DNA of 64,000 nucleotides from Lingula anatina (Eukaryota > Animalia > Brachiopoda). This document shows positions 9,044 to 48,732 of this stretch, piece by piece; within the stretch, counting starts at the first letter, position 1, and the number at the start of each line of letters is the position of its first letter. Location of the stretch: NCBI GenBank assembly GCA_051362555.1, contig CM120646.1, forward strand, positions 9,362,001 through 9,426,000, read 5' to 3'. The notes under the pieces are model-generated. The model saw nothing but the letters and a program-made list of their open reading frames with translations, did not search any database and was not told where the DNA came from. Position numbers and translations under genes: made by a program.

Positions 9044-9156
9044 CTTTGAGTGCCACTGTTAATGAGTCGTTTCATTTCCTTGCTATCACACGTGACCTTG
9101 CCCTGGACGTCGACAAATGTATCACAATCACGGGGAGGGTTATTATCCTTGGCCAC
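9044..9156 (-). CDS. UGGT1: UGGT exon 5 (VAKDNNPPRDCDTFVDVQGKVTCDSKEMKRLINSGTQ)
   Basis: ttctgtgttcag acceptor and gtactt donor. Conserved PP..C..F..V.GK.TC pattern (vertebrate PPPEGCNSFFSVHGKKTC). Confidence 0.88.
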
Positions 9157-10015
9157 CTGAACACAGAAAATTCAATTAAAAAGTATACAGCAGTAAAGTT
9201 TATAAAATATGTATATACCTATACCTGGATCCTAAGAACAAAACCAACATAACCCTTTAACAGGATAAAAATTCTTCAAATGAGATTCCATTTTAAGGCA
9301 GTTTTACCACCAAAATGGCATGGATATAATATTTTTCATTTAATACTTTACAAAGCTGAGTTTTAAAGTTAACAATTTACTGCACACACAATTTAGTAAT
9401 AACTTGACCTTTTCAATAGGGAAAAAATTATCAAGACTTCAGATACATAATTTTGGAATCACCAGCATTTGTGGTAAATAGCATTATGTGTAGAAAAGAA
9501 TTAAAAGGTGGACTGCTTTTCAGTTCTGTTCCTACCAATGAATCGGAAGATTCAAATTTTAAGCAATACAGTAACTGTAAAACACAGTACCTGAAATTCC
9601 CCCCTTTGAAAAGATCAAGCTATAACAGTTATTCAACAACCAAGTTTATGGAAAACAAGTTATAAATTGGCTGAACAACCCTGTTAAAACTCATTGGTAG
9701 AACTGTGATGTAGGTTCAGAGAAATCCTTAATGTGGCAGTCTAACATTTTACATTCTGGGGGACTGGAGAACGCTTTAGGTTCTGGAGGGGGGGGGGGGG
9801 CATACCACACCCAGTAAATCACAAAAATAACTGGATGTTAGTTAATAAGTTTTAGTTTGACTGATAATGGATGTTAGATGTTTTAAAATTATGTTTGTTT
9901 GAAAGAAAATTCAGAAGCTCTTTCCTCAATTAGGCCTGGATGGATCTACAGGACAATATGTGCACATACTGCCATACCTGAACATATAAATGTTAAGACA
10001 TTTCTGTTTACTCAC

Positions 10016-10147
10016 CTGATTATGCATTTCTACAGCTGGTGAATAAGATCTTAATGATAATGAAAACTTGAGAAGGCCCAGTTGTAATTTGGAAGGAATA
10101 AGTTTTTCTGCTATGGACAGAATCATCTCATACACTTTTAGGTTCTT
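10016..10147 (-). CDS. UGGT1: UGGT exon 4 (..VYEMILSIAEKLIPSKLQLGLLKFSLSLRSYSPAVEMHNQ), apparent frameshift near its 5' end
   Basis: ttttcctttcag acceptor and gtgagt donor; the KFSLSLRSYS motif matches UGGT. Length 132 nt is incompatible with the phase-1 donor of exon 3 (reads KEPKSV*). Confidence 0.85.
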
Positions 10148-11890: not shown

Positions 11891-12695
11891 TTAAATGGTC
11901 ACTATGGTGGCAGTGCCCAAAACAGGGTTTCCTTTAATTATTACATAATGCTTTAGAGCCACCAATTTTTAACTATGCACTGCAAGTAACATACATAGGA
12001 AAAAGATGTGATTAGCATAGGTCTTCAGGCCCATCAAAATTCAAGGTAAGTTTGAGAATCATAAGCAGCAAGTTTTCCTGAAATGGTCACCATAATGGCA
12101 TGTCCAAAATAGGTTTTCTTCAATATACATACAATAAAACATAATGCTTAACAGCATAATCATCACCTATCTTTAATTATGGTCTGATCTGATTTTCAAA
12201 CTCAACCTGTATTTCAGTAAGATTGATCACTCCTGTGAGTTTAAAACAAAAGGCCTCTCGGTTTTCCTTGACCAATCATGCCGATTTTAAAACCACATCT
12301 ACATTTTATGAATATGCATCAGTTCTGTAAGTTTTAAGCCAAAAGGTGAAACAGTTTTCCACTTATGGGGTTATCACTGAAAGTGGATTGGCAATGCTGC
12401 CAAAAATGCCCACGATGACGAATGCAGGTGACTTCTAACAGCATTCCAGTGACTGGGAATATCATGCAATGCAGATAGCAACTGCCGATTGATCACTGAT
12501 GAGGGTCACTCACTGATCCTTAAACTGAAGTATATTCTTGGCAATTCATAAAACAATCTTTTTAATAGCATGTAGTTCATTCAGTTAAACCAGTAGAAAC
12601 CACTGCGTTCATTCAGTTAAACCAGTAGAAACCACTGCGTATAAAAGATGACATGCAAAATGAAATCATATCATTCAGAAAAACTGTATACTTAC

Positions 12696-12781
12696 TATCT
12701 TGCATGTCAGCAGTGTTGGCCTCTGCCACAGTATCCACAAAAGCCCAGAACATGGCATTACTCTCTTTGGCCAGAAACTCG
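12696..12781 (-). CDS. UGGT1: UGGT exon 3 (SEFLAKESNAMFWAFVDTVAEANTADMQD)
   Basis: catttcag acceptor and gtaagt donor; phase 2 in (fits exon 2), phase 1 out. Matches vertebrate SEFLAEDSQEKFWNFVE. Confidence 0.9.
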
Positions 12782-12869
12782 CTGAAATGATATAGTCATT
12801 TTCATTTAGCTTATGCAGGTTGTGAAAATTTAGTAGATAATAAAAGCCTCATGTTCAGATTTTAATTGT

Positions 12870-13952: not shown

Positions 13953-14077
13953 CTAGTTTCTAGCATCAGTGGTGTCGACTCCCATTTGGCATCTAGTGAC
14001 ACAGAGACAAATTTGGACTTGGCATCTACTTCACGGCAGGCATGCAGCACCAAGATAACTAACAAAACAAGCCCTGC
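13953..14077 (-). CDS. UGGT1: UGGT exon 2 (AGLVLLVILVLHACREVDAKSKFVSVSLDAKWESTPLMLET)
   Basis: ttttttgcag acceptor and gtatag donor. The peptide matches the UGGT N-terminus as I recall it (vertebrate SKAITTSLTTKWFSTPLLLEAS). Lies inside ORF 13700..14197(-). Confidence 0.9.
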
Positions 14078-16189: not shown

Positions 16190-16987
16190 CTCACATCCAA
16201 AATTATAAGTTCCAACAACAATGAGACATCAAAATTTCAACTTGGCGCCAATCTTATGAGCACACTTTCCACTTAGAATATATATATATACACAGCATCA
16301 TATTTTGCTATATATTCATTTAAACCACAGCTAGCAGTAGAACAAAAGACTTGGCTGCTGTATTCCACATACAGGCATATCACGTACTAGTGCGTTTCAT
16401 GGTCTGTTGCACTCCCGTTACTCACTAGCTAATAAGGGCCCAGTATCTGTTTATCGGGTCCTAGCGCCTACCACGGATCAGACATCAATGAAAACAAGTC
16501 ATTTCTCAAACTTTTGATATCATGAAACAGCATTTATCCAAAAACTGATAGTTAGCGTTCTCGAATTTGAATGACAAGTTGCTCAAAATACAGATTGTGA
16601 AAACGAAAGTTTAAAAATCTACACATCCAAAGTAAATGTCCTGCCTTCTTTGACAATGACAATTTTCTTAATCTGTGAAGGCATGTGAGGTATCAAGGTA
16701 TCATCACCATCATTACATGATGGGCACGGGTGGATCCAGGATTATTTGAAGGGGGTGGGGGGGGGGGGGGTCCAAAATGACAGGCCTCAGTTGTGAAGCT
16801 GCTCATCGCCCCTTGGTGTGGGGTTTGGGGCCTGCTCAAGGGCCCAATTTTTGATGTTTTGGAGAGCAAACTGTATATAAGAAGGCCAAATAAGCTCAAG
16901 GGTCAGAAGAGAAAAGCATGAGGCAATAAAGGTTGCCGTCTTGGATCTACTTGATCATAACAAACCCGTGTTCATCACACATACATG

Positions 16988-17563
16988 GGTACTTTTGTAG
17001 TATACCCCCCCACCCTGTAACTTCCTGAAACTTTCATTTTTCAAACATTTTTTTTACATTGTCTTTTTCACCTATGTCAAAGCTGTTGAAATAAAATGTT
17101 TTTGTAATTACCTGTGGTCTTTTTATTAGTTTTAATCATGTTTAATCCACCCCATTGAAATACAATATGAAAATTTACAATGTACCCGCAGTCAATAACT
17201 TGCCGCGTTTTAGTTGGCTACTCTACCTTATTTTATGTGAACATAGGATTGATACAATGTATACTTGGACTTCCTCTGTGAAATTATTATAAGCTACTTG
17301 TTCACACAAAATTACCTTAGAGTTAGCCAACGAAAACGCGGCAAGTTATTGACTGCAGGTGTAAATTGAAGATTCTAACATTGTATTTCAATGGGCTGGC
17401 TTAAACGTAATTAAAACCAATAAAAAGTCCACAGGTAATTACAAAAGCATTTTATTTCAACAGCTTTGATATAGATGAACAAGAAAATGTAAAAAACTGT
17501 TTGAAAAGTGAAAGTTACAGAAAGTTACAGGGTGGTGGGGGGGGGGTATACTACAAAAGTACC
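16988..17563. mobile_element. Palindromic MITE with GG termini and 8-bp TSD (Merlin-like)
   Basis: TIRs ggtacttttgtagtatacccc.. extend almost to the centre. TSD catacatg at 16980-16987 and 17564-17571. The empty site is visible in the paralogous segment near 35990. Confidence 0.85.
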
Positions 17564-17903
17564 CATACATGTACAGTTAACAGAATACTACTAGTGCGTG
17601 GTCAACAATCACTGTCTTTGAGTCATTCACACAGCCTCCATCGCAAACTTCAATAAATTTCATATCTTCGGGAATTTTGTAACGAAAAACACTAAACAAG
17701 ATTATGAAGAAAATCACTTCATTCTAACAATTATTCTATCTACAAACTGAAAATTTTTGACGCAAAAATCTCTTAAATTGTGGCCTCTATCACCGGACGG
17801 AAATTCGACCACGAACTCACACACAATCGCACAATCAGGCAAATAAGCTGAGCAGTAGACTTACAAAAATATTTCGCAAATAATAAACACGAATGCTGCT
17901 TAC

Positions 17904-17924
17904 CATTATAGCCGGAATCTTCAT
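17904..17924 (-). CDS. UGGT1: UGGT exon 1, coding part (MKIPAIM)
   Basis: Minus strand reads gacgacATG AAG ATT CCG GCT ATA ATG|gtaagc. The phase-0 donor joins in frame to exon 2 to give a signal peptide MKIPAIMAGLVLLVILVLHACREVDA. It lies in a CpG-richer promoter-like region. Confidence 0.7.
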
Positions 17925-18259
17925 GTCGTCTGAGAATTAGAAATGCACCGGAAAGGCATCTGCGCAGACTCGGACTCCTTCTTGAGGAGAGTTGAGATAA
18001 ACAAACAGTCGGGTTTACAAACAGAAATACCCCACCCCATTAATGCTAGAAACATTAATTCCCATTGATTTGTAAAGGTCAGCCCCGTCCTAGATTTTGA
18101 ACCAATTGGCCACGCTTACACCATTTATCTGCACCAATATATTGACACCGCCACCAACCTGACATTAAAGAATAAAGTTTACACTATTGCCGCAGATCGA
18201 CGACGATACCGGTTATGCAATCATCTTACTTAAATGACCTGGACCAATCCCAACGCTTT
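17925..18259 (-). promoter_or_regulatory. UGGT 5'UTR and proximal promoter
   Basis: CpG-richer sequence; CCAAT boxes at 18102 and 18134 (32 bp apart); ATTGGCCACG at 18105-18114, resembling ERSE-II (ATTGG-N-CCACG) without the spacer; ETS-like ACCGGAA and TGCGCA near 17947-17966. Confidence 0.55.
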
Positions 18260-21121
18260 GAGCTACCCAGCAAGGGCTAACACTTGCCAGCCACTACAGT
18301 GGCTAGATCACATTATAACATCTTTGACTTTCAAATTAAAGTGACTAGAGCCGATTTCCACAGCATCTACATTCCGATTGTGGTAGTTGAGCTGCCACAA
18401 TCGGAATATCAATGCTGTCGAAATTGGTTTAGTCCCTTTGTAGTACTTTTAAAATGCTGGAATTGGTCAGGACCAGCGCAATCGATGTGTCGCAATAGGT
18501 CAGGCTCAACTACCACAATTGGAAAATCGAAGATGTTAAATTAGGATCTAGCCCCTGTAGCAGCTGCTGGATTTTGACTCTGGCTTGGTAGCTCAGTTGG
18601 TAGAGCAGTGGCTTGGTGTGAAAGAGTCCCAGGTTTGAATCCCAGAGGAAGCCTGGAGTTTTTCTCCCAGTCTATCGATTGGTCCAGCTCAACTACCATA
18701 ATCGGAGTGTCGATGCTGTCGAAATTGGCTCTAGTCCCTATGTAGTACTTTAAAAATGCTGGAATTGGTCACGACTAGCGCAATCTGTTTGTCGCGATTG
18801 GATCGGCTCAACGACCACAATCAGAATGTCGATGCTGTCGAAATCAGCTCTAGTCCCTTTGTAGTACTTTTAAAATGCTGGAATTGGTCAGGACTAGCGC
18901 AATCGGTGTGTTGCGATTGGTCAGGCTCAACAATCACTATCGTAATGTCGATGATGTCGAAATCGGCTCTAGCCCCTGTAGCAGCTGCCGGATTTTGACT
19001 CTGGCTAGGTAGCTCAGTTGGTAGAACAGTGGCTTGGTGTGCAAGAGTCCCAGGTTCGAATCCCACAGGGAGCCTGGTGTTTTTCTCCCAGTCTATGGAT
19101 TGGTCCAGCTCAACTACCATAATTGGAGTGTCTATGCTGTCGAAATTGGCTCTAGTCCCTATGTAGTACTTTAAAAATGCTGGAATTGGTCACGACTAGC
19201 GCAATCTGTTTGTCGCGATTGGTTCGGCTCAACTACCACAATCAGAATGTCAATGCTGTCGAAATCGGCTCTAGTCCCTTTGTAGTACTTTAAAAATGCT
19301 GGAATTGGTCAGGACTAGCGCAATCAGGGTGTTGCGATTGGTCAGGCTCAACAATCACTATCGGAATGTCGATGATGTCGAAATCGGCTCTAGCCCCTGT
19401 AGCAGCTGCTGGATTTTGACTCTGGCTAGGTAGCTCAGTTGGTAGAGCAGTGGCTTGGTGTGCAAGAGTCCCAGGTTCGAATCCCAGAGGGAGCCTGGGG
19501 TTTTTCTCCCAGTGTATCGATTGGTCCAGCTCAACTACCATAATCGGAGTGTCGATGCTGTCGAAATCGGCTATAGTCCCTTTGTAGTACTTTAAAAATG
19601 CTGGAATTGGTCAGGACTAGCGCAATCGGTGTGTTGCGATTGGTCAGGCTCAACAATCTCTATCGTAATGTCGATGATGTCGAAATCAGCTCTAGCCCCT
19701 GTAGCAGCTGCCGGATTTTGACTCTGGCTAGGTAGCTCAGTTGGTAGAACAGTGGCTTGGTGTGCAAGAGTCCCAGGTTCGAATCCCACAGGGAGCCTGG
19801 GGTTTTTCTCCAAGCCTATCGATTGGTCCAGCTCAACTACCACAATCGGAGTGTCGATGCTGTCGAAATCGGCTACAGTCCCTATGTAGTACTTTAAAAA
19901 TGCTGGAATTGGTCAGGAATAGCACAATCGGTTGGTCGCGATTGGTTCGGCTCAACTACCACAATCGGAATGTTGATGCTTTCGAAATCAGCTCTAGTCC
20001 CTTTGTAGTACTTTAAAAATGCTGGAATTGGTCCGTAAAAGCGCAAACGGTGTGTTGCGATTGGTCAGGCTCAACTACCACAATCGGAGTGTCGATGCAG
20101 TCGAAATTGGCTACAGTCCCTATGTAGTACTTTAAAAATGCTGGAATTGGTCAGGAATAGCACAATCAGTTGGTCGCGAGAGGTTCGGCTCAACTACCAC
20201 AATCGGAATGTTGATGCTTTCGAAATCAGCTCTAGTCCCTTTGTAGTACTTTAAAAATGCTGGAATTGGTCCGTAAAAGCGCAAACAGTGTGTTGCAATT
20301 GGTCAGGCTCAACAATCACTATCGGAATGTCAATGCTGTCGAAATTGGCTCTAGTCCCTATGTAGTACTTTAAAAATGCTGGAATTGGTCACGACTAGCG
20401 CAATCTGTTTGTTGCGATTGGATCGGCTCAGCTACCACAATCAGACTGTTGATGCTGTCGAAATCGGCTCTAGTCCCTTTGTAGTACTTTAAAAATGCTG
20501 AAACTGGTCAGGACTAGCGCAATCGGTGTGTTGCGATTGGTCAGGCTCAACAATCACTATCGGAATGTCGATGAGGTCGAAATCGGCTCTAGCCCCTGTT
20601 GCAGCAGCCGGATTTTGACTCTGGCTAGGTAGCTCAGTTGGTAGAGCAGTGGCTTGGTGTGCAAGAGTCCCAGGTTCGAATCCTAGAGGGAGCCTGGGGT
20701 TTTTCTCCCAGCCTATTGATTGGTCCAGCTCAACTACCACAATAGGAGTGTCGATGCTGTCGAAATTGGCTCTAGTCCCGATGTAGTACTTTAAAAATGC
20801 TGGAATTGGTCAGAAATAGCACAATCGGTTGGTCGCGATTGGTTCGGCTCAACTACCACAATCGGAATGTTGATGCTTTCGAAATCAGCTCTAGTCCCTT
20901 TGTAGTACTTTAAAAATGCTGGAATTGGTCCGTAAAAGCGCAAACGGTGTGTTGCGATTGGTCAGGCTCAACAATCACTATCGGAATGTCGATGATGTCG
21001 AAATCGGATCTAGACCCTGTAGCAGCTGCCGGATTTTGACTCTGGCTAGGTAGCTCAGTTGGTAGAACAGTGGCTTGGTGTGCAAGAGTTCCAGGTTCGA
21101 ATCCCAGAAGGAGCCTGGGGT
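18260..21121 (+). repeat. Left array of tRNA-containing satellite (119-bp plain monomer plus 183-bp tRNA-bearing monomer; 302/421-bp higher-order units)
   Basis: The monomer aactaccacaatcggaatgtcgatgctgtcgaaatcggctctagtccc..gtactttaaaaatgctggaattggtcagg recurs at 119/183-bp spacing (e.g. 19112, 19231, 19350, 19533). The first ~135 bp are a degenerate unit in the opposite orientation. Confidence 0.95.
18582..21115 (+). tRNA. Six tRNA-derived (Thr-like) pseudo-tRNA / Pol III cassettes
   Basis: 72-nt copies at 18582-18653, 19003-19074, 19424-19495, 19726-19797, 20623-20694 and 21044-21115. A box TAGCTCAGTTGG, paired D arm, B box GGTTCGAATCC, GGT at the anticodon position, and a T-run just downstream (cut short in the last copy). 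Acceptor, anticodon and T stems pair poorly. Confidence 0.7.
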
Positions 21122-23625
21122 TTGGCATAAGAAAGCAAAAAGAAGGGCTTCAGAGATCAAAAAAAGAAAGGAAAAGAAGGGCTTTAGAGAGGCTTTAGAG
21201 ACACGAAAAGAAGGATTTAGAGGGACTTAGAGATAAGAAAAGAAGGGCTTTAGCGACACCAAAAGAACGGCTTTACAGAGCAAAATAGAAAGGAAAAGAA
21301 GGAAGGGCTTTAGAGACACGAAAAGAAGCTTTAGAGACACGAAAAGAATGGAATAGAAGGGCTTTAGAAGGGCTGTAAGACACGATATCAAGGTTGTAGA
21401 GACTCGAAAAGAAAGGAAAAGAAGGGCTTTAAAGAAACGAAAAGAAGACTTTAAAGACACGATATGAAAGGAAAAGAAGGGCTTTAGAAGGACTGTAGAG
21501 ACACAAAAAATAGACTTTAAAGAAACAAAAAGAAAGGAAAAGGAGGGCTTTAGAAGGGCTGTAAAGACACAATAAGAAGGTTGTAGAGACTCGAAAAGAA
21601 AGGAAAAGAAGGGCTTTAGAAGGACTGTAGGACACGAAAAATGGACTTTAACGAAACAAAAAGAAAGGAAAAGGAGGGCTTTAGAAGGGCTGTAAAGACA
21701 CAATAAGAAGGTTGTAGAGACTCGAAAAGAAAGGAAAAGAAGGGCTTTAGAAGGACTGTAGGACACGAAAAATGGACTTTAACGAAACGAAAAGAAAGGA
21801 AAAGGAGGGCTTTAGAAGGGCTGTAGAGACACGAAAAGAAGACTTTAGAGACACAAAATGAAAGGAAAAGAAGGGCTTTAGAAGGGCTGTAGTACACGAT
21901 AAGAAGGTTGTAGAGACTCGAAAAGAAAGGAAAAGAAGGGCTTAAGAAGGGCTGTAGAGACACGAAAAGAAGGTTGTAGAGACTCGAAAAGAAAGGAAAA
22001 GAAGGGCTCTTGAAGGGCCTTTAAGACACGAAAAGAAGACTTCATAGACACGAAAAGAAAGGAAAAGAAGGGCTTTAGAAGGACTGTAAAGACACGATAA
22101 GAAGGTTGTAGAGACTCGAAAAGAAAGGAAAAGAAGGGCTTTAGAAGGGCTTTAAAGAAACGAAAAGAAGACTTTAAAGACACGATATGAAAGGAAAAGA
22201 AGGGCTTTAGAAGGGCTGTAAGACACGATAAGAAGGTTGTAGAGACTCGAAAAGAAAGGAAAAGAAGGGCTTTAGAAGGACTGTAGAGACACGAAAAATG
22301 GACTTTAACGAAACGAAAAGAAAGGAAAAGGAGGGCTTTAGAAGGGCTGTAGAGACACGAAAAGAAGACTTTAGAGACACAAAATGAAAGGAAAAGAAGG
22401 GCTTTAGAAGGGCTGTAGTACACGATAAGAAGGTTGTAGAGACTCGAAAAGAAAGGAAAAGAAGGGCTTAAGAAGGGCTGTAGAGACACGAAAAGAAGGT
22501 TGTAGAGACTCGAAAAGAAAGGAAAAGAAGGGCTCTTGAAGGGCCTTTAAGACACGAAAAGAAGACTTCATAGACACGAAAAGAAAGGAAAAGAAGGGCT
22601 TTAGAAGGACTGTAAAGACACGATAAGAAGGTTGTAGAGACTCGAAAAGAAAGGAAAAGAAGGGCTTTAGAAGGGCTTTAAAGAAACGAAAAGAAGACTT
22701 TAAAGACACGATATGAAAGGAAAAGAAGGGCTTTAGAAGGGCTGTAAGACACGATAAGAAGGTTGTAGAGACTCGAAAAGAAAGGAAAAGAAGGGCTTTA
22801 GAAGGACTGTAGAGACACGAAAAATGGACTTTAACGAAACGAAAAGAAAGGAAAAGGAGGGCTTTAGAAGGGCTGTAAAGACACGATAAGAAGGTTGTAG
22901 AGACTCGAAAAGAAAGGAAAAGAAGTGCTTTAGAAGGGCTGTAGAGACACGAAAAGAAGACTTAAGAGACACGATATGAAAGGAAAAGAAGGGCTTTAGA
23001 AGGGCTTTAAAGAAACGAAAAGAAGACTTTAAAGACACGATATGAAAGGAAAAGAAGGGCTTTAGAAGGGCTGTAAGACACGATAAGAAGGTTGTAGAGA
23101 CTCGAAAAGAAAGGAAAAGAAGGGCTTTAGAAGGGCTGTAGAGACACGAAAAGAAGACTTAAGAGACACGATATGAAAGGAAAAGAAGGGCTTTAGAAGG
23201 GCTGTATGACACGATAAGAAGGTTGTAGAGAATCGAAAAGAAAGGAAAAGAAGGGCTCTTGAAGGGCCTTTCAGACACGAAAAGAAGACTTTAAAGACAC
23301 GAAAAGAAAGGAAAAGAAGGGCTTTAAAAGGGCTGTAAGACACGACAAGAAGGTTGTAGAGACTCGAAAAGAAAGGAAAAGAAGAGCTTTAGAAGGGCTG
23401 TAAGACACGATAAGAAGGCTTTAAAGACACGAAAAGAAAGGAAAAGAAGGGCTTTATAAGGGCTTTAAAGACACGAAAAGAAGACTTTGAAGACACGAAA
23501 AGAAAGGAAAAGAAGTGCTTGAGAAGGGCTTTAGAGACAGGAAAAGAAGGGCTTTATAGGCACGAAAAGAATGGAAAAGAAGAGCTTTAAAAGGGCTTTG
23601 ATAAAAGGAAAAAAAGGGTTTCGAG
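21122..23625 (+). repeat. Purine-rich (GA) satellite arm, ~66-bp unit with 262/329/526-bp higher-order repeats
   Basis: gaaaagaaaggaaaagaagggctttagaagggctgt.. repeated. Higher-order spacing is visible in the repeated spurious ORF boundaries at 21616, 21878, 22404, 22733 and 23062. Confidence 0.95.
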
Positions 23626-26600
23626 ACACTTAAAGCCCTTCTTTTCCTTTCTTTTTTGCTCTGTAAAGCCCTTCTTTTCTTTTCTTTTCGTGTCTCTAAA
23701 GCCTTCTTTTCGGGTATCCAAGCCCCTATAAAGCCCTTCTTTTCCTTTCTTTTTTGCTCTCTAAAGCCCTTCTAAAGCCCTTCTTTTCCTTTCTTTTTTG
23801 CTCTCTAAAGCCGTTCTAAAGCCCTTCTTTTCCTTTCTTTTAGTGTCTCTAAAGCGTTCTTTTCGGGTATCCAAGCCCCTATGAAGCCCTTCTTTTCCTT
23901 TCTTTTTTGCTCTCTAAAGCCGTTCTAAAGCCCTTCTTTTCCTTTCTTTTAGTGTCTCTAAAGCCTTCTTTTCGGGTATCCAAGTCTCTATAAAGCCCTT
24001 CTTTTCCTTTCTTTTTTGCTCTCTTAAGCCCTTCTAAAGCCCTTCTTTTCCTTTCTTTTCGTGTCTCTAAAGCCTTCTTTTCGGGTCTCTAAGCCCCTAT
24101 AAAGCCCTTCTTTTCCTTTCTTTTTTGCTCTGTAAAGCCCTTCTTTTCTTTTCTTTTCGTGTCTCTAAAGCCCTTCTTTTCGGGTCTCTAAGCCCCTATA
24201 AAGCCCTTCTTTTCCTTTCTTTTTTGCTCTCTAAAGCCGTTCTAAAGCCCTTCTTTTCCTTTCTTTTAGTGTCTCTAAAGCGTTCTTTTCGGGTATCCAA
24301 GCCCCTATGAAGCCCTTCTTTTCCTTTCTTTTTTGCTCTCTAAAGCCGTTCTAAAGCCCTTCTTTTCCTTTCTTTTAGTGTCTCTAAAGCCTTCTTTTCG
24401 GGTATCCAAGTCTCTATAAAGCCCTTCTTTTCCTTTCTTTTTTGCTCTCTTAAGCCCTTCTAAAGCCCTTCTTTTCCTTTCTTTTCGTGTCTCTAAAGCC
24501 TTCTTTTCGGGTCTCTAAGCCCCTATAAAGCCCTTCTTTTCCTTTCTTTTTTGCTCTCTAAAGCCCCTATAAAGCCCTTCTTTTCCTTTCTTTTTTGCTC
24601 TCTAAAGCCCCTATAAAGCCCTTCTTTTCCTTTCTTTTTTGCTCTCTAAAGCCGTTCTAAAGCCCTTCTTTTCCTTTCTTTTAGTGACTCTAAAGCCTTC
24701 TTTTCGGGTCTCTAAGCCCCTATGAAGCCCTTCTTTTCCTTTCTTTTTTGCTCTCTAAAGCCCTTCTAAAGCCTTTCTTTTCGGGTCTCTAAGCACCTAT
24801 AAAGCCCTTCTTTTCCTTTCTTTTTTTCTCTCTTAACCCCTTCTAAAGCCCTTCTTTTCGGGTCTCTAAGCCCCTATAAAGCCCTTCTTTTCCTTTCTTT
24901 TTTTCTCTCTAAACCCTTTCTAAAGCCCTTCTTTTCCTTTCTTTTCGTGTCTCTAAAGCCTTCTTTTCGTGTCTCCAAGCCCCTATAAAGCCCTTCTTTT
25001 CCTTTCTTTTTTGCTCTCTAAAGCCCTTCTAAAGCCCTTCTTTTCCTTTCTTTTAGTGACTCTAAAGCCTTCTTTTCGGGTCTCTAAGCCCCTATGAAGC
25101 CCTTCTTTTCCTTTCTTTTTTGCTCTCTAAAGCCCTTCTAAAGCCTTTCTTTTCGGGTCTCTAAGCACCTATAAAGCCCTTCTTTTCCTTTCTTTTTTGC
25201 TTTCTAAAGCCCTTCTAAAGCCCTTCTTTTCCTTTCTTTTCGTGTCTCTAAAGCCTTCTTTTCGGGTCTCCAAGCCCCTATAAAGCCCTTCTTTTCCTTT
25301 CTTTTTTGCTCTCTAAAGCCCTTCTTTTCCTTTCTTTTTTTCTCTCTTAACCCCTTCTAAAGCCCTTCTTTTCGGGTCTCTAAGCCCCTATAAAGCCCTT
25401 CTTTTCCTTTCTTTTTTTCTCTCTAAACCCTTTCTAAAGCCCTTCTTTTCCTTTCTTTTCGTGTCTCTAAAGCCTTCTTTTCGTGTCTCCAAGCCCCTAT
25501 AAAGCCCTTCTTTTCCTTTCTTTTTTGCTCTCTAAAGCCCTTCTAAAGCCCTTCTTTTCCTTTCTTTTAGTGTCTCTAAAGCCTTCTTTTCGGGTCTCCA
25601 AGCCCCTATAAAGCCCTTCTTTTCCTTTCTTTTTTGCTCTCTAAAGCCCTTCTAAAGCCCTTCTTTTCCTTTCTTTTTTGCTCTCTAAAGCCCTTCTAAA
25701 GCCCTTCTTTTCCTTTCTTTTCGTGTCTCTAAAGCCTTCTTTTCGTGTCTCCAAGCCCCTATAAAGCCCTTCTTTTCCTTTCTTTTTTGCTCTCTAAAGC
25801 CCTTCTAAAGCCCTTCTTTTCCTTTCTTTTTTTCTCTCTAAAGCCCTTCTAAAGCCCTTCTTTTCCTTTCTTTTCGTGTCTCTAAAGCCTTCTTTTCGGG
25901 TCTCCAAGCCCCTATTAAGCCCTTCTTTTCCTTTCTTTTCGTGTCTCTAAAGCCTTCTTTTCGGGTCTCTAAGCCGATATAAAGCCCTTCTTTTCCTTTC
26001 TTTTTTGCTTTCTAAAGCCCTTCTAAAGCCCTTCTTTTCCTTTCTTTTCGTGTCTCTAAAGCCTTCTTTTCGGGTCTCCAAGCCCCTATAAAGCCCTTCT
26101 TTTCCTTTCTTTTTTGCTCTCTAAAGCCCTTCTTTTCCTTTCTTTTTTGCTCTGAAAAGCCCTTCTTTTCCTTTCTTTTTTGCTCTCTAAAGCCCTTCTA
26201 AAGCCCTTCTTTTCCTTTCTTTTCGTGTCTCTAAAGCCTTCTTTTCGGGTCTCCAAGCCCCTATTAAGCCCTTCTTTTCCTTTCTTTTCGTGTCTCTAAA
26301 GCCTTCTTTTCGGGTCTCTAAGCCCCTATAAAGCCCTTCTTTTCCTTTCTTTTTTGCTTTCTAAAGCCCTTCTAAAGCCCTTCTTTTCCTTTCTTTTCGT
26401 GTCTCTAAAGCCTTCTTTTCGGGTCTCCAAGCCCCTATAAAGCCCTTCTTTTCCTTTCTTTTTTGCTCTCTAAAGCCCTTCTTTTCCTTTCTTTTTTGCT
26501 CTGAAAAGCCCTTCTTTTCCTTTCTTTTTTGCTCTCTAAAGCCCTTCTAAAGCCCTTCTTTTCCTTTCTTTTAGTGTCTCTAAAGCCTTCTTTTCGGGTC

Positions 26601-29600
26601 TCCAAGCCCCTATGAAGCCCTTCTTTTCCTTTCTTTTTTGCTCTCTAAAGCCGTTCTAAAGCCCTTCTTTTCCTTTCTTTTAGTGTCTCTAAAGCCTTCT
26701 TTTCGGGTATCCAAGTCTCTATAAAGCCCTTCTTTTCCTTTCTTTTTTGCTCTCTTAAGCCCTTCTAAAGCCCTTCTTTTCCTTTCTTTTCGTGTCTCTA
26801 AAGCCTTCTTTTCGGGTCTCTAAGCCCCTATAAAGCCCTTCTTTTCCTTTCTTTTTTGCTCTCTAAAGCCCCTATAAAGCCCTTCTTTTCCTTTCTTTTT
26901 TGCTCTCTAAAGCCCCTATAAAGCCCTTCTTTTCCTTTCTTTTAGTGTCTCTAAAGCCTTCTTTTCGGGTCTCTAAGCCCCTATGAAGCCCTTCTTTTCC
27001 TTTCTTTTTTGCTCTCTAAAGCCCTTCTAAAGCCTTTCTTTTCGGGTCTCTAAGCACCTATAAAGCCCTTCTTTTCCTTTCTTTTTTGCTTTCTAAAGCC
27101 CTTCTAAAGCCCTTCTTTTCCTTTCTTTTCGTGTCTCTAAAGCCTTCTTTTCGGGTCTCCAAGCCCCTATAAAGCCCTTCTTTTCCTTTCTTTTTTGCTC
27201 TCTAAAGCCCTTCTTTTCCTTTCTTTTTTTCTCTCTAAACCCCTTCTAAAGCCCTTCTTTTCGGGTCTCTAAGCCCCTATAAAGCCCTTCTTTTCCTTTC
27301 TTTTTTTCTCTCTAAACCCTTTCTAAAGCCCTTCTTTTCCTTTCTTTTCGTGTCTCTAAAGCCTTCTTTTCGGGTCTCCAAGCCCCTATAAAGCCCTTCT
27401 TTTCCTTTCTTTTTTGCTCTCTAAAGCCCTTCTTTTCCTTTCTTTTTTTCTCTCTAAACCCCTTCTAAAGCCCTTCTTTTCGGGTCTCTAAGCCCCTATA
27501 AAGCCCTTCTTTTCCTTTCTTTTTTTCTCTCTAAACCCTTTCTAAAGCCCTTCTTTTCCTTTCTTTTCGTGTCTCTAAAGCCTTCTTTTCGTGTCTCCAA
27601 GCCCCTATAAAGCCCTTCTTTTCCTTTCTTTTTTGCTCTCTAAAGCCCTTCTAAAGCCCTTATTTTCCTTTCTTTTAGTGTCTCTAAAGCCTTCTTTTCG
27701 GGTCTCCAAGCCCCTATAAAGCCCTTCTTTTCCTTTCTTTTTTGCTCTCTAAAGCCCTTCTTTTCTTTTCTTTTCGTGTCTCTAAAGCCTTCTTTTCGGG
27801 TCTCCAAGCCCCTATAAAGCCCTTCTTTTCCTTTCTTTTTTGCTCTCTAAAGCCCTTCTTTTCTTTTCTTTTCGTGTCTCTAAAGCCTTCTTTTCGGGTC
27901 TCCAAGCCCCTATAAAGCCCTTCTTTTCCTTTCTTTTTTGCTCTCTAAAGCCCTTCTAAAGCCCTTCTTTTCGGGTCTCCATCGTGTCTCTAAAGCCTTC
28001 TTTTCCTTTCTTTTTTGCTCTCTAAAGCCGTTCTAAAGCCCTTCTTTTCGGGTCTCTAAGCCCCTATAAAGCCCTTCTTTTCCTTTCTTTTCGTGTCTCT
28101 AAAGCCTTCTTTTCGGGTCTCCAAGACCCTATAAAGCCCTTCTTTTCCTTTCTTTTTTGCTTTCTAAAGCCCTTCTAAAGCCCTTCTTTTCCTTTCTTTT
28201 CGTGTCTCTAAAGCCTTCTTTTCGGGTCTCCAAGCCCCTATAAAGCCCTTCTTTTCCTTTCTTTTTTGCTCTCTAAAGCCCTTCTTTTCCTTTCTTTTTT
28301 TCTCTCTAAACCCCTTCTAAAGCCCTTCTTTTCGGGTCTCTAAGCCCCTATAAAGCCCTTCTTTTCCTTTCTTTTTTTCTCTCTAAACCCTTTCTAAAGC
28401 CCTTCTTTTCCTTTCTTTTCGTGTCTCTAAAGCCTTCTTTTCGGGTCTCCAAGCCCCTATAAAGCCCTTCTTTTCCTTTCTTTTTTGCTCTCTAAAGCCC
28501 TTCTTTTCCTTTCTTTTTTTCTCTCTAAACCCCTTCTAAAGCCCTTCTTTTCGGGTCTCTAAGCCCCTATAAAGCCCTTCTTTTCCTTTCTTTTTTTCTC
28601 TCTAAACCCTTTCTAAAGCCCTTCTTTTCCTTTCTTTTCGTGTCTCTAAAGCCTTCTTTTCGTGTCTCCAAGCCCCTATAAAGCCCTTCTTTTCCTTTCT
28701 TTTTTGCTCTCTAAAGCCCTTCTAAAGCCCTTCTTTTCCTTTCTTTTAGTGTCTCTAAAGCCTTCTTTTCGGGTCTCCAAGCCCCTATAAAGCCCTTCTT
28801 TTCCTTTCTTTTTTGCTCTCTAAAGCCCTTCTTTTCTTTTCTTTTCGTGTCTCTAAAGCCCTTCTTTTCTTTTCTTTTCGTGTCTCTAAAGCCTTCTTTT
28901 CGGGTCTCCAAGCCCCTATAAAGCCCTTCTTTTCCTTTCTTTTTTGCTCTCTAAAGCCCTTCTAAAGCCCTTCTTTTCGGGTCTCCAAGCCCCTATAAAA
29001 CCCTTCTTTTCCTTTCTTTTTTGCTCTCTAAAGCCGTTCTAAAGCCCTTCTTTTCGGGTCTCTAAGCCCCTATAAAGCCCTTCTTTTCCTTTCTTTTCGT
29101 GTCTCTAAAGCCTTCTTTTCGGGTCTCCAAGACCCTATAAAGCCCTTCTTTTCCTTTCTTTTTTGCTCTCTAAAGCCCTTATAAAGCCCTTCTTTTCCTT
29201 TCTTTTAGTGTCTCTTAAGCCTTCTTTTCGGGTCTCCAAGCCCCTATAAAGCCCTTCTTTTCCTTTCTTTTTTGCTCTCTAAAGCCCTTATAAAGCCCTT
29301 CTTTTCCTTTCTTTTTTGCTCTCTAAAGCCCTTCTAAAGCCCTTCTTTTCCTTTCTTTTAGTGTCTCTTAAGCCTTCTTTTCGGGTCTCCAAGCCCCTAT
29401 AAAGCCCTTCTTTTCCTTTCTTTTAGTGTCTCTTAAGCCTTCTTTTCGGGTCTCCAAGCCCCTATAAAGCCCTTCTTTTCCTTTCTTTTTTGCTCTCTAA
29501 AGCCCTTCTAAAGCCCTTCTTTTCCTTTCTTTTAGTGTCTCTAAAGCCTTCTGTTCGGGTCTCTAAGCCCCTATAAAGCCCTTCTTTTCCTTTATTTTTT

Positions 29601-30500
29601 GCTTTCTAAAGCCCTTCTAAAGCCCTTCTTTTCTTTTCATTTCGTGTCTCTAAAGCCTTCTTTTCGGGTCTCCAAGCCCCTATAAGGCCCTTCTTTTCCT
29701 TTCTTTTTTGCTCTCTAAAGCCCTTCTTTTCCTTTCTTTTTTTCTCTCTAAACCCCTTCTAAAGCCCTTCTTTTCCTTTCTTTTAGTGTCTCTAAAGCCT
29801 TCTTTTCGGGTCTCCAAGCCCCTATAAAGCCCTTCTTTTCCTTTCTTTTTTGCTCTGAAAAGCCCTTCTTTTCTTTTCTTTTCGTGTCTCTAAAGCCTTC
29901 TTTTCGCGTATCCAAGCCCCTATAAAGCTCTTCTTTTCCTTTCTTTTTTGCTCTCTAAAGCCCTTCTAAAGCCCTTCTTTTCCTTTCTTTTCGTGTCTCT
30001 AAAGCCTTCTTTTCGGGTCTCTAAGCCCCTATAAAGCCCTTCTTTTCCTTTCTTTTTTGCTCTCTAAAGCCGTTCTAAAGCCCTTCTTTTGCTTTCTTTT
30101 AGTGTCTCTAAAGCCTTCTTTTCGGGTCTCTAAGCCCCTATAAAGCCCTTCTTTTCCTTTCTTTTTTGCTCTCTAAAGCCCTTCTTTTCTTTCTTTTCGT
30201 GTCTCTAAAGCCCCTATAAAGCCCTTCTTTTCCTTTCTTTTTTGCTCTGTAAAATCCTTCTTTTCTTTTCTTTTCGTGTCTCTTAAGCCTTCTTTTCGTG
30301 TCTCTACAGCCCCTATAAAGCCCTTCCTATCTTTCCTTTTCGTGTCTCTTTAGCCTTGATTTCGTATCTTTAAAGCCCTTCTAAAGCCCTTCTTTTCGTT
30401 TCTTATGGTTTCTCTAAGTCCTTCTTTTTGTGTCTCAAAAGCCCTTCTTTGACCTTCTTTTTTGTTCTCTGAAGCCCTCCTTTTTGCTTTTTTATGCCAA
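23626..30500 (-). repeat. Pyrimidine-rich (TC) satellite arm built from ~11-, ~22- and ~33-nt modules
   Basis: Shuffled modules aaagcccttcttttcctttcttttttgctctct, aaagcccttct and aaagccttcttttcgggtctc; a reverse-complement relative of the left arm. Confidence 0.95.
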
Positions 30501-33500
30501 TTTTACAGTATTTTTAAAGTACTACATAGGGACTAGAGCCGATTTCGACAACATCGTCATTCCAATTGTGTAAGTTGAGCCTGACCAATGGGGACAAACA
30601 GGTTTCGCAAGTCCTGAGCAATTCCATCATTTTTAAAGTACTACATAGGGACTAGAGCCGATTTCGACAGCATCGACACTCCGATTGTGGTAGTTGAGCT
30701 GGACCAATCGATAGGAGAAAAACCCTTGGCTCCCTGTGGGATTCGAACCTGGGACCTTTTCACACCAAACCACTGCTCTACCAACTGAGCTACCTAGCCA
30801 GAGTCAAAATCCAGCAGCTGCTACAGGGGCTAGAGCCGATTTCGACAGTAGCGACATTCCCAATGTGGTAGTTGAGCCTGTCCTATCACGACACACCGAC
30901 TGCGCTAGTCCTGACCAATTCCAGCATTTTTAAAGTACTACATAGGGACTAGAGCCGATTTCGACAACATCGACATTCCGATTGTGGTAGTTGAGCTGGA
31001 CCAATCGATAGACTGGGAGAAAAACCCTTGGCTCCCTGTGGGATTCGAACCTTGGACTCTTGCACACCAAGCCACTGCTCTACCAACTGAGCTACCTAGC
31101 CAGAGTCAAAATCCAGCAGCTGCTACAGGGGCTAGAGCTGATTTCGACAGTATCGACATTCCCAATGTGGTAGTTAAGCCTGACCGATCGCAACACACCG
31201 ACTGCGCTAGTCCTGACCATTTCCAGCATTTTTAAAGTACTACATAGGGACTAGAGCCGATTTCGACAGCATCGACACTCCGATTGTGGTAGTTGAGCTG
31301 GACCAATCGATAGGCTGGGAGAAAAACCCTTGGCTCCCTGTGGGATTCGAACCTGGGACCTTTGCACACCAAACCACTGCTCTACCAACTGAGCTACCGA
31401 GCCAGAGTCAAAATCCAGCAGCTGCTACAGGGGTTAGAGCCAATTTCGACATCATCGACATTCCGATTGTGGTAGTTGAGCCTGACTGATTGTGACACAC
31501 CGATTGCGCTAGTCCTGACCAATTCCAGCATTTTTAAAGTACTACATAGGGACTAGAGCCGATTTCGACAACATCGACATTCCCATTGTGGTAGTTGAGC
31601 CTGACCGATCGCGACACACCGACTGCGCTATTCCGGACCAATTCCAGCATTTTTATAGTACTACAATGGGACTAGAGCCGATTTCGACAACATCGACATT
31701 CCGATTGTGGTAGTTGAGCTGGACCAATCGATAGACTGGGAGAAAAAACCCCTGTGGTATTCGAACCTGGGACTCTTGCACACCAAGCCACTGCTCTACC
31801 AACTGAGCTACCTAGCCAGAGTCAAAATCCAGCAGCTGCTACAGGGGCTAGCGCCAATTTCGACAGCATCAACATTCCGATTGTGGTAGTTGAGCCTAAC
31901 CGATCGTGACACACCGATTGCGCTAGTCCTGACCAATTCCAGCATTTTTAAAGTACTACATAGGGACTAGAGCCGATTTCGACAACATCGACATTCCGAT
32001 TGTGGTAGTTGAGCCAAACCAATCGCGACAAACAGATTGCGCTAGCCCTGACCAATTCCAGCATTTTTAAAGTACTACATAGGGACTAGAGCCGATTTCG
32101 ACAGCATCGACACTCCGATTGTGGTAGTTGAGCTGGACCAATCGATAGGCTGGGAGAAAAACCATTGGCTGCCTGTGGGATTCGAACCTGGGACTCTTGC
32201 ACACCAAGCCACTGCTCTACCAACTGAGCTACCTAGCCAGAGTCAAAATCCAGCAGCTGCTACAGGGGCTAGAGCCGATTTCGACAGTATCGACATTCCC
32301 AATGTGGTAGTTGAGCCTGACCTATCACGACACACCGACTGCGCTAGTCCTGACCAATTCCAGCATTTTTAAAGTACTACATAGGGACTAGAGCCGATTT
32401 CGACAACATCGACATTCCGATTGTGGTAGTTGAGCTGGACCAATCGATAGACTGGGAGAAAAACCCTTGGCTCCCTGTGGGATTCGAACCTGGGACTCTT
32501 GCACACCAAGCCACTGCTCTACCAATTGAGCTACCTAGCCAGAGTCAAAATCCAGCAGCTGCTACAGGGGCTAGAGCCGATTTCGACAGTATCGACATTC
32601 CCAATGTGGTAGTTAAGCCTGACCGATCGCAACACACCGACTGCGCTAGTCCTGACCAATTCCAGCATTTTTAAAGTACTACATTGGGACTAGAGCCGAT
32701 TTCGACAGCATCGACACTCCGATTGTGGTAGTTGAGCTGGACCAATCGATAGGCTGGGAGAAAAACCCTTGGCTGCCTGTGGGATTCGAACCTGGGACTC
32801 TTGCACACCAAGCCACTGCTCTACCAACTGAGCTTCCGAGGCAGAGTCAAAATCCAGCAGCTGCTACAGGGGTAGAGCCGATTTCGACAGCTTCGACATT
32901 CCGATTGTGGTAGTTGAGCCTGAACGATCGCGACACTCCGACTTCGCTATTCCGGACCAATTCCAGCATTTTTAAAGTACTACAAAGAGACTAGAGCCGA
33001 TTTCGACAACATCGACATTCCAATTGTGGTAGTTGAGCCAAACCAATCGCGACAAACAGATTGCGCTAGTCCTGACCAATTCCAGCATTTTTAAAGTACT
33101 ACATAGGGACTAGAGCCGATTTAGACAGCATCGACACTCCGATTGTGGTAGTTGAGCTGGACCAATCGATAGGCTGGGAGAAAAACCCCAGGCTCCCTGT
33201 GGTATTCGAACCTGGGATTCTTGCACACCAAGCCACTGCTCTACCAACTGAGCTACCTAGCCAGAGTCAAAATCCAGCAGCTGCTACAGGGGCTAGAACC
33301 AATTTCGACAGCATCGACATTCCGATTGTGGTAGTTGAGTCTGACCGATCGCGACACACCGACTGCGCTAGTCCTGACCAATTCCAGCATTTTTTAAAGT
33401 GCTACATAGGGACTAGAGCAGATTTCGACAGCATCGACAATCCGATTGTGGTAGTTGAGCCTAACCAATCGCAACTTACTAATTGCAGTAATCCTGACCA

Positions 33501-34689
33501 ATTCCAGCATTTTTTAAAGTACTACAAATGGACCAGAGCAGATTTCGACAGCATCGACATTCCAATTGTGGTAGTTGAGCCTAACCAAACGCAACAAACA
33601 GATTGCACTAGTCCTGATTTTTCCAGCATTTTTTAAAGTACTACATAGGGACTAGAGCCGATTTCGACAGTATCGACACTCCGATTGTGGTAGTTGGGCT
33701 GGACCAATCGCGACTAGAGCAGATTTTGTCAGCATCGACATTACGATTGTGGTAGTTGAGCTGGACCATTTGCTAGGCTGCTAGAAAAACCCTAGGCTCC
33801 CTCTGGGATTCGAACATGGGACTCTTGCACACCAAGCCACTGCTCTACCAACTGAGCTACTGAGCCAGTGTCAAAATCCAGCAGCTGCTACAGGGGCTAG
33901 AGCCAATTTCGACAGCATCGATATTCCGATTGTGGTAGTTGAGCCTGACCGATCGTGACACACTGATTGCGCTAGTCCTGACCAATTCCAGCATTTTTAA
34001 AGTACTACAAAGAGACTAGAGCCGATTTCGACAGCATCGACATTCCCATTGTGGTAGTTGAGCCTGACCGATCGCAACACAACGATTCCCCTTACTGGAC
34101 CAATTCCAGCATCTTTAAAAGTACTACAAAGGGACTAGAGCAGATTTCTAAAGCATCGACATTCCGATTGTGGTAGTTGAGCCTAACCAATCACAACTTA
34201 CAAATTGCAGTAGTCCTGACCAATTCCAGCATTTTTTAAAGTACTACAAATGGACCAGAGCAGATTTTGACAGCATCGACATTCCGATTGTGGTAGTTGA
34301 GCCTTACCAATCGCAATAAACAGATTGCGCTTGTCCTGACCAATTCCAGCATTTTTTCAAGTACTACAAAGGGACTTCAACAGCATCGACATTCCGATTG
34401 TGGTAGTTGAGCTGGACCAATCGATAGACTGGGAGAAAAACCCCAGGTTCCCTATGGGATTCGAACCTGGGACTCTTGCTTACCGAGCCATTGCTCTACC
34501 AACTGAGCTACCCAGCCAGAGTCAACACCCGGTAGCCGCTGCAGGGGCTAGAGCCTATTTTAACATCTTCTTTTTTCCAATTGTGGTAGTTGAGCCTGAC
34601 CGATCGCGACACACCTATTGTGCTATTCCTGGCCAATTTCAGTATTTTTAAAGTACTACAAAGGGACTAGAGCCGATTTCGACAGCATC
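30501..34689 (-). repeat. Right array of the same tRNA-containing satellite, reverse orientation
   Basis: Reverse-complement monomers (gtactacatagggactagagccgatttcgacagcatcgacattccgattgtggtagttgagc) with the same 119/183 periodicity; ends at a poly-C run near 34689-34704. Confidence 0.95.
30728..34517 (-). tRNA. Ten tRNA-derived (Thr-like) pseudo-tRNA / Pol III cassettes
   Basis: Reverse copies at 30728-30799, 31030-31101, 31332-31403, ~31749-31817 (short deletion), 32167-32238, 32469-32540, 32771-32842, 33191-33262, 33795-33866 and 34446-34517. Same A and B boxes and downstream T-run on the minus strand. Confidence 0.7.
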
Positions 34690-34746
34690 CCCCCCCCCCC
34701 CCCCATCGCTCTAATTTCTGGAATTTGTCGCAATTTCGGTGTGTGT

Positions 34747-35584
34747 AAAGCGTTGCGATTGGTCCAGGTCATTTAAGTAAGATGATTGCATAACCGGTAT
34801 TGTCGTCAATCTGCGGCAATAGTGTAAAATTTATTCTTTAATTGTCAGGTTGGTGGCGGTGTCAATATATTGGTGCAGATAAATGGTGTAAGCGTGGCCA
34901 ATTGGTTCAAAATCTAGGACGGGGCTGACCTTTACAAATCAATGGGAATTAGAGTTTCTAGCATTAATGGGGTGGGGCATTTCTGTTTGTAAACCCGACT
35001 GTTTGTTTATCTCAACTCTCCTCAAGAAGGAGTCCGAGTCTGCGCAGATGCGTTTCCGGTGCATTTCCAATTCCCAGACGACACGAAGATTCTGGCTTTA
35101 ATGGTAAGCAGCATATACGTGTTTATTATTTGCGAAAGATTTTTGTAAGTCTACTGCTCAGCTTATTTGCCTGATTGTGCGATTGTGTGTGAGTTCGTGG
35201 TCGTCCGGTGATAGAGGCCACAATTTAAGAGATTTTCGCGTCAAAAATTTTCAATTTGTAGATATAGATATTTGGGTACTTTTGTAATGGGCTGGATTAA
35301 ACGTGATTAAAACTAATAAAAAGTCCACAGGTAATTACAAAAGCATTTTATTTCAACAGCTTTGACATAGATGAACAAGAAAATGTAAAAAACTGTTTGA
35401 AAAGTGAAAGTTACAGGGTGGGGGGGTATACTACAAAACTACCGATAATTGTTAGAATGAACTGATTTTCTTCATTATCTTGTTTAGTGTTTTTCCGTTA
35501 CAAAATTCCTGAAGATTTGAAAATTATTTAAGTTTGTGATGGAGGTTGCGTGAATGACTCAAAAACGGTGATAGTTGACCACAT
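34747..35584 (+). pseudogene. Inverted duplicate of the UGGT promoter, exon 1 and start of intron 1 (start codon ATG>ACG)
   Basis: Reverse-complement copy of 17596-18259, roughly 90-96% identical by eye. The exon-1 copy at 35083-35103 reads ACG AAG ATT CTG GCT TTA ATG|gtaagc. I found no downstream UGGT exons. Confidence 0.88.
35275..35443. mobile_element. Internally deleted copy of the same MITE family
   Basis: ggtacttttgta ... tatactacaaaactacc; TSD gatatttg/gataattg. The corresponding site in the left arm (~17725) is empty. Confidence 0.8.
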
Positions 35585-36314
35585 CAGACATGCTGAAAAC
35601 TTTTCAGAATGGTCGGACATTTGGATCGGCAGTAATGAAAAATTTGCTAGACCAAATGGATATTTGTTGGACCAAAAAACACCCTATTCGTTTGAGACAG
35701 ATACTGTCAGTAAGATTGGGAAGCTTACTTTGTTTGTGAATGTGATAGGTTTAAAATGGAGGGGAAAACGCTTTGGGTTTTATATAATTTATGTCGAATG
35801 ATGACTGTAAATTCAAAATTGTGGTTCTTAAAACACTTATCGGTCCTTTGTACCGACCAAGTCCAATTTTTTACCGGTCTGGACAAAAAACAAGTCGTTT
35901 CTCAAACTTTTGATATCATGAAACAGCATTTATCCAAAAACTGATAATTAGAGTTTTGGATCTACTTGGCTATTATTGATCATAACAAACATACATGTAC
36001 AGTTAACAGAGTACTACTAGTATGTGCAGACATGCTGAAACTGTTGGTCCGACATACCCTGAGCGTCAGAGCAACGTAAAAGCTAGCTTGCGAAATATAC
36101 CTTGTGGCGGAGTCGCTTTTACTAACTCTGAAGACCAGCGGCCATGAAAGTTTTCCATCAATCAAATAGAATTGCTCCGCAGTGAAAATGCAGTTGAATG
36201 TCATCAGACCAAAATAGCTACAGCTACACTGTATGCCCGATACCACTATAAGGGCTGCGCAATGGCTACACGAAAATAAGTTTTTACAGCAGAATGTTGC
36301 TTGTATTGTGGCAC
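35585..36314. mobile_element. Rearranged ends of a DNA transposon with cagacatgctgaaa termini and 5-bp TSD (atgtg)
   Basis: The terminus cagacatgctgaaa occurs at 35585 (after cacat) and at 36027 (after atgtg). Between them lies host sequence (35891-36026) matching 16495-16560, 16941-16965 and 17564-17600. Confidence 0.6.

Positions 36315-48698: not shown

Positions 48699-48732
<34 letters not shown>

Follow-up and report, generated by a model that had tools for sequence, protein, structure and literature searches.

An imperfect 18-kb palindrome upstream of the Lingula anatina UGGT gene as the probable remains of an old inverted duplication

We analyzed a stretch of 64,000 nucleotides from the brachiopod Lingula anatina (assembly GCA_051362555.1, contig CM120646.1, positions 9,362,001 to 9,426,000 of the forward strand; hereafter the window), which carries an imperfect 18-kb palindrome upstream of the UGGT gene. 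From the outside in, its layers are the UGGT promoter with exon 1, a 119/183-bp satellite with 16 inward-facing tRNA-like cassettes that resemble the long terminal repeats (LTRs) of Helenus retrotransposons, and a GA-rich/TC-rich satellite that forms the core. This block is probably the decaying product of a single inverted duplication, followed by repeat turnover within each arm and by a later re-cutting of the centre. A previous description made from the letters alone (the sequence-only reading) had proposed a three-layer nested palindrome, and a comparison of the window with itself upheld the order and the coordinates of the layers, which lie inverted around 23629/23630 as follows.

17598..18259, - strand: left outer layer (start of UGGT intron 1, exon 1 and promoter), reading outward
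18241..18391, - strand: worn reversed satellite/LTR remnant (nhmmer E 2e-8 and 7e-12)
18392..21123, + strand: left 119/183-bp satellite with six Helenus-type LTR cassettes
21124..23629, + strand: left GA-rich satellite with 66/131-bp periods, worn at both ends
23629..23630, no strand: head-to-head centre, bridged in run X4; each of three DNA runs has a single version
23630..30500, - strand: right core satellite, organized as 33/44/65-bp units with a 109-bp period and fresh as far as the centre
30501..34689, - strand: right 119/183-bp satellite with ten cassettes
34747..35582, + strand: right copy of promoter, exon 1 and intron start, reading outward, not followed by exon 2

As the sequence-only reading had noted, the arms are unequal in length and in sequence: cutting the 119/183-bp layer gave 20 units in the left arm and 30 in the right arm, with an identity between the arms of ~90% in this middle layer and ~72% in the core. 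Since the longest exact match between the arms is only 111 bp, the block is an aged structure and not a read fold-back, again in agreement with that reading. The inverted copy directly adjoins the original, a feature of fold-back inverted duplications, and the GA-rich and TC-rich satellites, first placed as meeting at ~23625, meet head-to-head at 23629/23630. This junction was found in other samples by aligning contigs of three runs from three studies (X1, X2 and X4) to regions of the window; contig depth in these runs is not a copy number. Of 22 listed runs, the analysis covered five, namely these three and the RNA runs X13 and X16. In X4, one contig (record 17) spans the centre from 23530 to 23710, with ~100 bases to the left and 80 to the right, three differing letters and one gap. 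The segment 23600-23627 is covered by one contig per run in all three, the window letter at 23607 differs from X1, X2 and X4 alike, and one base at 23630 is missing in X1 and X4. Because the centre is bridged by a contig of another study and has one version per run, it is not a mis-join. The centre exists beyond this assembly, and the arm lengths and the full linkage were read from the window.

Within the 119/183-bp layer, the six left cassettes (starting at 18556, 18977, 19398, 19700, 20597 and 21018) lie on the + strand and the ten right cassettes on the - strand, every one facing the centre. After exclusion from identities and tree of the three units (out of 50) that fell outside 108-123 or 170-186 nt, 28 of 32 119-bp units and 14 of 15 183-bp units had their nearest neighbour within their own arm. 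The outermost 183-bp units of left and right nevertheless form one clade (99/94), and the outer core edges of the two arms align; both arms therefore come from one array. CpG transitions in the 119-bp units were four times as frequent as those at other C/G sites (62/512 vs 40/1312, in copies that are not independent), which suggests long-term methylation. CCAAT words occur 11-14 times per kb in the arrays vs 1-3 elsewhere. At the outer edge of the left satellite (~18391), the reversed remnant, 13 bases of which are identical to the start of the Helenus-2_LAn LTR, points to an older small fold-back.

The description of this layer as a satellite with tRNA-like cassettes held for the satellite and the 16 inward-facing cassettes, but the cassettes are not tRNA genes. 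ARAGORN recognized none at default and 1/16 at the 95% threshold, no Rfam tRNA match was obtained at E 0.1, and the cassette fold was no better than that of shuffled sequences; the only Rfam matches were of miRNA type, sub-threshold and caused by hairpins at 18355-18424 and at the centre. Instead, the cassettes are likely, from their letters, to be worn LTR ends of a Helenus-type mini-retrotransposon multiplied inside the satellite. Helenus elements are short non-autonomous LTR retrotransposons with a tRNA-like RNA polymerase III (Pol III) promoter in the LTR, and three families are described in L. anatina (PMC10886601). Six window words were tried against the supplement of that paper: three of them, of 13, 15 and 19 bases, have a single occurrence each, always in a Lingula LTR, and the three others (two from the satellite monomer, one from a cassette) were absent from it. 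From its first base, the common cassette matches the Helenus-2_LAn LTR in 89/123 columns (~72%, hand alignment), with many CpG-type changes. It shares the LTR start, the 26-nt lead, the tRNA-Thr-like core carrying A and B boxes and the T-rich tail. Unlike in Helenus, however, the 3' LTR terminus is absent in 16/16 cassettes (by eye), which leaves no flank pair for a 4-bp target-site duplication; a primer-binding site and a polypurine tract are both missing (of the 15 nt that precede each start, 5-7 are purines), and no paired LTRs surround a Helenus internal part, the 61-nt remainder being satellite monomer. In contrast to dispersed Helenus copies, the cassette is a passenger within a satellite monomer. 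Given this colinearity, the cassette appears to derive from a Helenus-type LTR, though it is not a Helenus element.

Both box motifs are present in 11/16 cassettes and the B motif in 13/16, with a T-run 69-77 nt downstream in 15/16; judged from the alignment, the A box, the B box and the T-run are inherited LTR features. Variable columns numbered 5/23 in the boxes vs 20/49 in the rest of the cassette, a difference that was not significant (p 0.18). A plain SINE (short interspersed nuclear element) head was rejected, as the Helenus colinearity accounts for the lead and the tail too (LinSINE1, PMC4824008, was not compared). An intact Helenus tandem array was also rejected: 183 is near the length of LTR plus internal part, yet the remainder is satellite. 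Tandem arrays are known for LTR-11_DR (PMC10886601) and Cassandra (PMC7215508), and SINE arrays and palindromes for the blood clam (PMC11481361). As in the arrays described there of SINEs and terminal-repeat retrotransposons in miniature, Pol III-type retroelement sequence is repeated in tandem, at times palindromic or inside genes; unlike them, the repeat here is an unrelated 119-bp monomer with the LTR on one third of copies, and the array is mirrored across a second satellite. Elsewhere in the window, an nhmmer search found a lone old monomer of the 119-bp type (~67%) on the + strand at 57987-58142 (E 3e-13), from which we conclude that this monomer was once dispersed. It adjoins, within 57928-58142, a scrap matching the Helenus-3_LAn LTR on the - strand, in a divergent layout as at 18241-18391, which hints that monomer and Helenus pieces may have travelled together.

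The core is built on 11-bp steps in both arms, but its higher-order periods differ (66/131 bp on the left, 109 bp on the right), and its purine content is 75% on the left and 24% on the right. Core identity is ~72% between arms vs 80-87% within them. Over the last 120 bp at the centre, the local-alignment score was 0.50-0.59 on the left vs 0.96-1.0 on the right: the left end is as worn there as the outer edges, whereas the right array stays uniform all the way to the junction, and ~120 bp of the worn left end are without a mirror on the right. From this worn left and fresh right side, we infer a later deletion into the right array, in which the original fold-back point was lost. Central asymmetry stabilises palindromes. 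Purine runs of at least 15 numbered 36 on the left and 122 on the right, vs ~9 and 28 in shuffles, and long purine tracts stall replication forks. Depth over the core peaked at 63,000 in X1, 350,000 in X2 and 212 in X4; some animals may carry a longer core or have core sequence at other places. At 21018-23642, beginning at the innermost left cassette, which lacks a T-run, the + strand contains no run of four T (T4) for 2,598 nt, and this tract ends 13 bases past the centre. A tract of such composition arises in 362/1000 shuffles, and we therefore rejected selection for a core strand free of T4. On its letters, the tract predicts long Pol III read-through if the innermost left cassette is active.

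The identification of the gene as UGGT was confirmed by a PF18400 match with three exon frames (of seven sent) and by P0001, a protein named Lingula anatina UGGT1 and the one found among 34 candidates, which aligns to six window exons at 84-97% (tblastn); a PDB sequence search with one exon gave nothing informative. Beyond exon 1, the gene continues leftward.

13953..14077, - strand: UGGT exon 2, end approximate (tblastn of P0001; PF18400 on three exon frames)
near 12700-12783, 10015-10138, 9040-9159, 5736-5834 and 195-279, - strand: further UGGT exons (tblastn of P0001)

In the left exon 1, the frame MKIPAIM at 17924-17904 is followed by a GT donor. P0001 begins at the final ATG of exon 1, which lies six codons past the first in-frame ATG of the window (17899-17924). 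In the right exon 1, at 35083-35103, the first ATG is now ACG, and the last ATG and the donor are retained, with which this exon could, by its letters, still splice. We rejected the ATG loss as proof of a null right exon, as the retained ATG matches the start of P0001 and the donor is kept. The outer layers match in inverted orientation at 90.6% (17598-17734 with 35445-35582) and at 94.2% (17728-18259 with 34747-35274). The intron has diverged between arms at 12/137 bases (95% confidence interval 4.6-14.8%), and this value, set against a heterozygosity reported as 1.6% for L. anatina (PMC4595640), argues for an old duplication. Divergence of promoter and exon (17/511) is below that of the intron (p 0.01) and fits constraint on the working copy alone (p 0.28 vs half the intron rate); constraint on the right promoter was rejected as unneeded to explain it. 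Within the block, selection would have acted on the working promoter only. The RNA evidence is weak, as it came from raw reads of two runs (X13 and X16), 6% of each run being read and small RNAs being missed; the exon-1 region had a depth of 2-4. Two CCAAT boxes near GC-rich words at 18100-18175 are unchanged in both promoter copies, and presumably recall ER-stress (endoplasmic reticulum stress) elements.

The ends of the block had been placed at 17596 and 35584. These are edges of the outer layer but not ends of the duplication, as homology reaches 16491: the segments 16491-16559, 16941-16964 and 17564-17600 recur in direct orientation at 35887-36026, where 127/134 aligned bases match. The following features lie at these outer ends.

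16491..17595, no strand: intron-1 stretch within the duplication, pieces of which recur at 35887-36026
16979..17572, no strand: palindromic miniature inverted-repeat transposable element (MITE), absent from the right-hand intron copy
35266..35444, no strand: shortened MITE of the same family, which contigs of X1, X2 and X4 skip
35585..35886, + strand: dispersed inserted element with a 14-bp terminal repeat, at the point matching 17595/17596
35887..36055, no strand: secondarily inverted piece with the intron-1 copy and the other element end, which starts at 36027 (far end approximate)

An X4 contig on the right flank leads out of the promoter copy and reaches 28 bases into the inserted element, with the MITE absent. 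The 14-bp terminal repeat of the inserted element starts at 35585 and at 36027, and the flanks share five bases that match the left arm at 17595/17596; the simplest history would be an insertion with a 5-bp duplication, then a local inversion. Just past the outer limit of the duplicated intron stretch, at 16480-16496, lies a near copy of this repeat; it may have helped to direct the small inversion, or may be due to chance. The inserted element is dispersed (high summed depth, varied flanks), and it is abundant in X13 polyA RNA, mainly on one strand, from copies elsewhere, as their letters and flanks differ.

For the single inverted duplication, we propose the following order of events. An old dispersed repeat monomer at the promoter edge would have fused with a Helenus-type LTR, and both unit types would have been amplified in tandem next to a GA-rich satellite. 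Repair of a break or stalled fork in or past the GA-rich tract, by fold-back or template switching, could then have copied no less than 7.1 kb, as far back as intron 1, and so have duplicated the start of this intron, exon 1, the promoter and the two neighbouring satellites. Unequal exchange inside each arm would have lengthened and homogenised the arrays separately, transposons would have entered both arms, and a short inversion would have scrambled the right end. In a last step, a deletion would have brought the left core, at its worn inner end, up against fresh sequence from inside the right core. Duplications of this kind are documented to arise through fold-back repair that uses short inverted microhomology (PMC3907307). 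Like the cases presented in that paper, the block is a head-to-head local copy that includes part of a gene and has an asymmetric centre; unlike them, it is old, common to several samples and reshaped in its arms by satellite turnover, and its original spacer and microhomology are unreadable.

Several observations weigh against this history or against the evidence for it. The original centre is gone and the repair route is unreadable, and the 4-5 bp of microhomology at the present junction depend on a unit variant that has 16 occurrences in the right array and none in the left. At the centre, the X1 contig has 60 bases to the left but only 27 to the right of the junction, less than the 31-base rule requires, and the X2 contig stops at the junction. 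No contig record of X1, X2 or X4 spans the whole block, no listed contig piece bridges the satellite-to-promoter join (near 34690) or the satellite-to-core joins, and the right-copy letters at 35476, 35567 and 35573 were unseen in these three runs. At 34808-34842, subtraction of tabulated depths gave four contig versions in X2 (128.7, 84.4, 72.3 and 71.6) and in X4 (36.1, 21.2, 17 and 25.3). Two versions differ from the right copy by 12/174 and 23/~250 letters plus gaps (7-9%), and are thus further from it than the left arm is. A single event leaves these extra promoter versions unexplained; their source may be older paralogues at other loci, or haplotypes of the dead copy that have diverged.

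Since several right-copy letters were unseen in three other runs and long reads are lacking, one could suppose that the assembler joined two separate haplotypes or loci as the two arms. We find this hardly credible, as an X4 contig bridges the centre and one of X1 almost does, the two sharing the same pair of differences from the window, the window is without an N gap, and the X4 contig of the right flank links the right promoter copy to the inserted element. The extra promoter versions (at least four in X2 and X4, three in X1) could instead indicate that promoter, satellite and core form a low-copy mobile or repeatedly duplicated module, a foldback- or Pack-type unit that captured the UGGT promoter, in line with the composite foldback transposon of the sequence-only reading. 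The lone old monomer with its Helenus-like scrap at 57928-58142 and the far higher depth of the core satellite in X2 than in X1 would agree with mobility, and the modular tandem arms resemble foldback elements such as Tetris, which is described with long inverted arms, an outer unique domain and inner tandem domains, and with target-site duplications of 8-10 bp (PMC4079207). Here, no target-site duplication of at least 5 bp was found within 6 bp of three candidate block end pairs, and a fourth pair matches only the terminal repeat of the inserted element. The block also lacks discrete ends independent of the host gene: the left arm holds the working exon 1 and is the 5' end of the gene, the outer domain is a working host promoter with intron, and homology passes the supposed ends into intron 1. 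The centre has one version per run, and the satellite depth in X1, which is not a copy number, is ~3 times that of one window-sized locus and far under that of the dispersed MITE. A mobile module is unlikely in our view, and the foldback transposon could not be upheld.

Another reading, compatible with the duplication history and indifferent to the origin of the block, is that the cassette satellite acts as a TFIIIC/Pol III barrier and protects the UGGT promoter against a methylated core rich in GA. It could draw on the retained boxes and T-runs of the cassettes, on the density of CCAAT words and on the place of the array between a housekeeping promoter and the core, and it has precedents in the B-box inverted repeats and tDNA barriers of fission yeast (PMC7474672, PMC2040200). 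We judge it rather unlikely, because the boxes and T-run are standard in the source LTR, the box columns are not significantly less variable than the others, the satellite itself shows CpG decay, and the right array, with more cassettes, guards no intact gene. By analogy with the fission yeast mating-type region, LTR-derived Pol III promoters might have been multiplied by the satellite and co-opted as a barrier between promoter and core, the mirror closing the domain on both sides, but this version too is improbable. The likeness to the IR-L/IR-R and centromeric tDNA barriers, as presented in those sources, lies in B-box inverted repeats around a domain of similar size; the arms here are diverged and unequal, the boxes are retroelement-derived and known from sequence alone, and box conservation shows no significant excess. 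Of the self-bounded chromatin domain suggested earlier, the flanking B boxes are present, and positive support for the domain was not found. Inverted duplications can also feed silencing, as in maize Ac/Ds (10.1101/2020.01.07.897926), and 36% of the left-arm 21-mers of the promoter, 34% of those of the satellite and 14% of those of the core have a perfect right partner; with the missing T-run of the innermost left cassette, this would suit small-RNA silencing fed by a long hairpin or by double-stranded RNA. Each exon-1 copy is directed outward, however, so the two Pol II promoter copies cannot simply drive a hairpin, as had been proposed, and Pol III read-through would end at 23642, in a tract of a kind common in shuffles. 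X16 gave 0 raw RNA reads on 23530-23627 and 5 on the right side, and X13 a depth of ~1 on one cassette. Production of such RNA is very unlikely. Overall, the aged real structure and the UGGT identity survived from the earlier interpretation, in contrast to the promoter-driven hairpin and the foldback transposon, with the chromatin domain left unsupported.

In our assessment, ordinary processes combined known kinds of sequence in a new way, and the chance that the block acts as a boundary is modest. Literature searches, which did not cover subscription papers, returned no account of the locus or the satellite, and no case in which a satellite carries an LTR as a passenger and is mirrored around another satellite at the promoter of a gene. 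The block offers a worked case of a large palindrome ageing beside an essential gene through arm-wise turnover, insertions and a re-cut centre, and of a retroelement LTR spread via a satellite rather than by retrotransposition. A further caution is that a tRNA-like array in a lophotrochozoan genome can consist of debris from Helenus LTRs. If a TFIIIC-bound array were to mark a chromatin step here, it would become testable whether such debris turns into an animal insulator, one assembled from pieces of a retroelement and a satellite, for which the dead right promoter would serve as an internal control.

Other repeats were observed in the window. An element cluster with a GTC-type microsatellite and 160/161-bp tandem repeats lies at 41257-49124, and scraps of its elements occur in UGGT introns at 4970-5377 and 12189-12388; we take the cluster to resemble the Helentron-related elements of bivalves. 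Copies of an element with 142/146-bp tandem repeats lie in opposite orientation at 6244-7599 and 39471-41196. Frames in a UGGT intron at 3924-4636 have a weak Baculo_FP match (E 0.009) and are probably, by this match, a retroelement ORF1 remnant. At 8548-8790, broken frames on the - strand show a CxxxxC...HF pattern, which we assume to recall a THAP domain.

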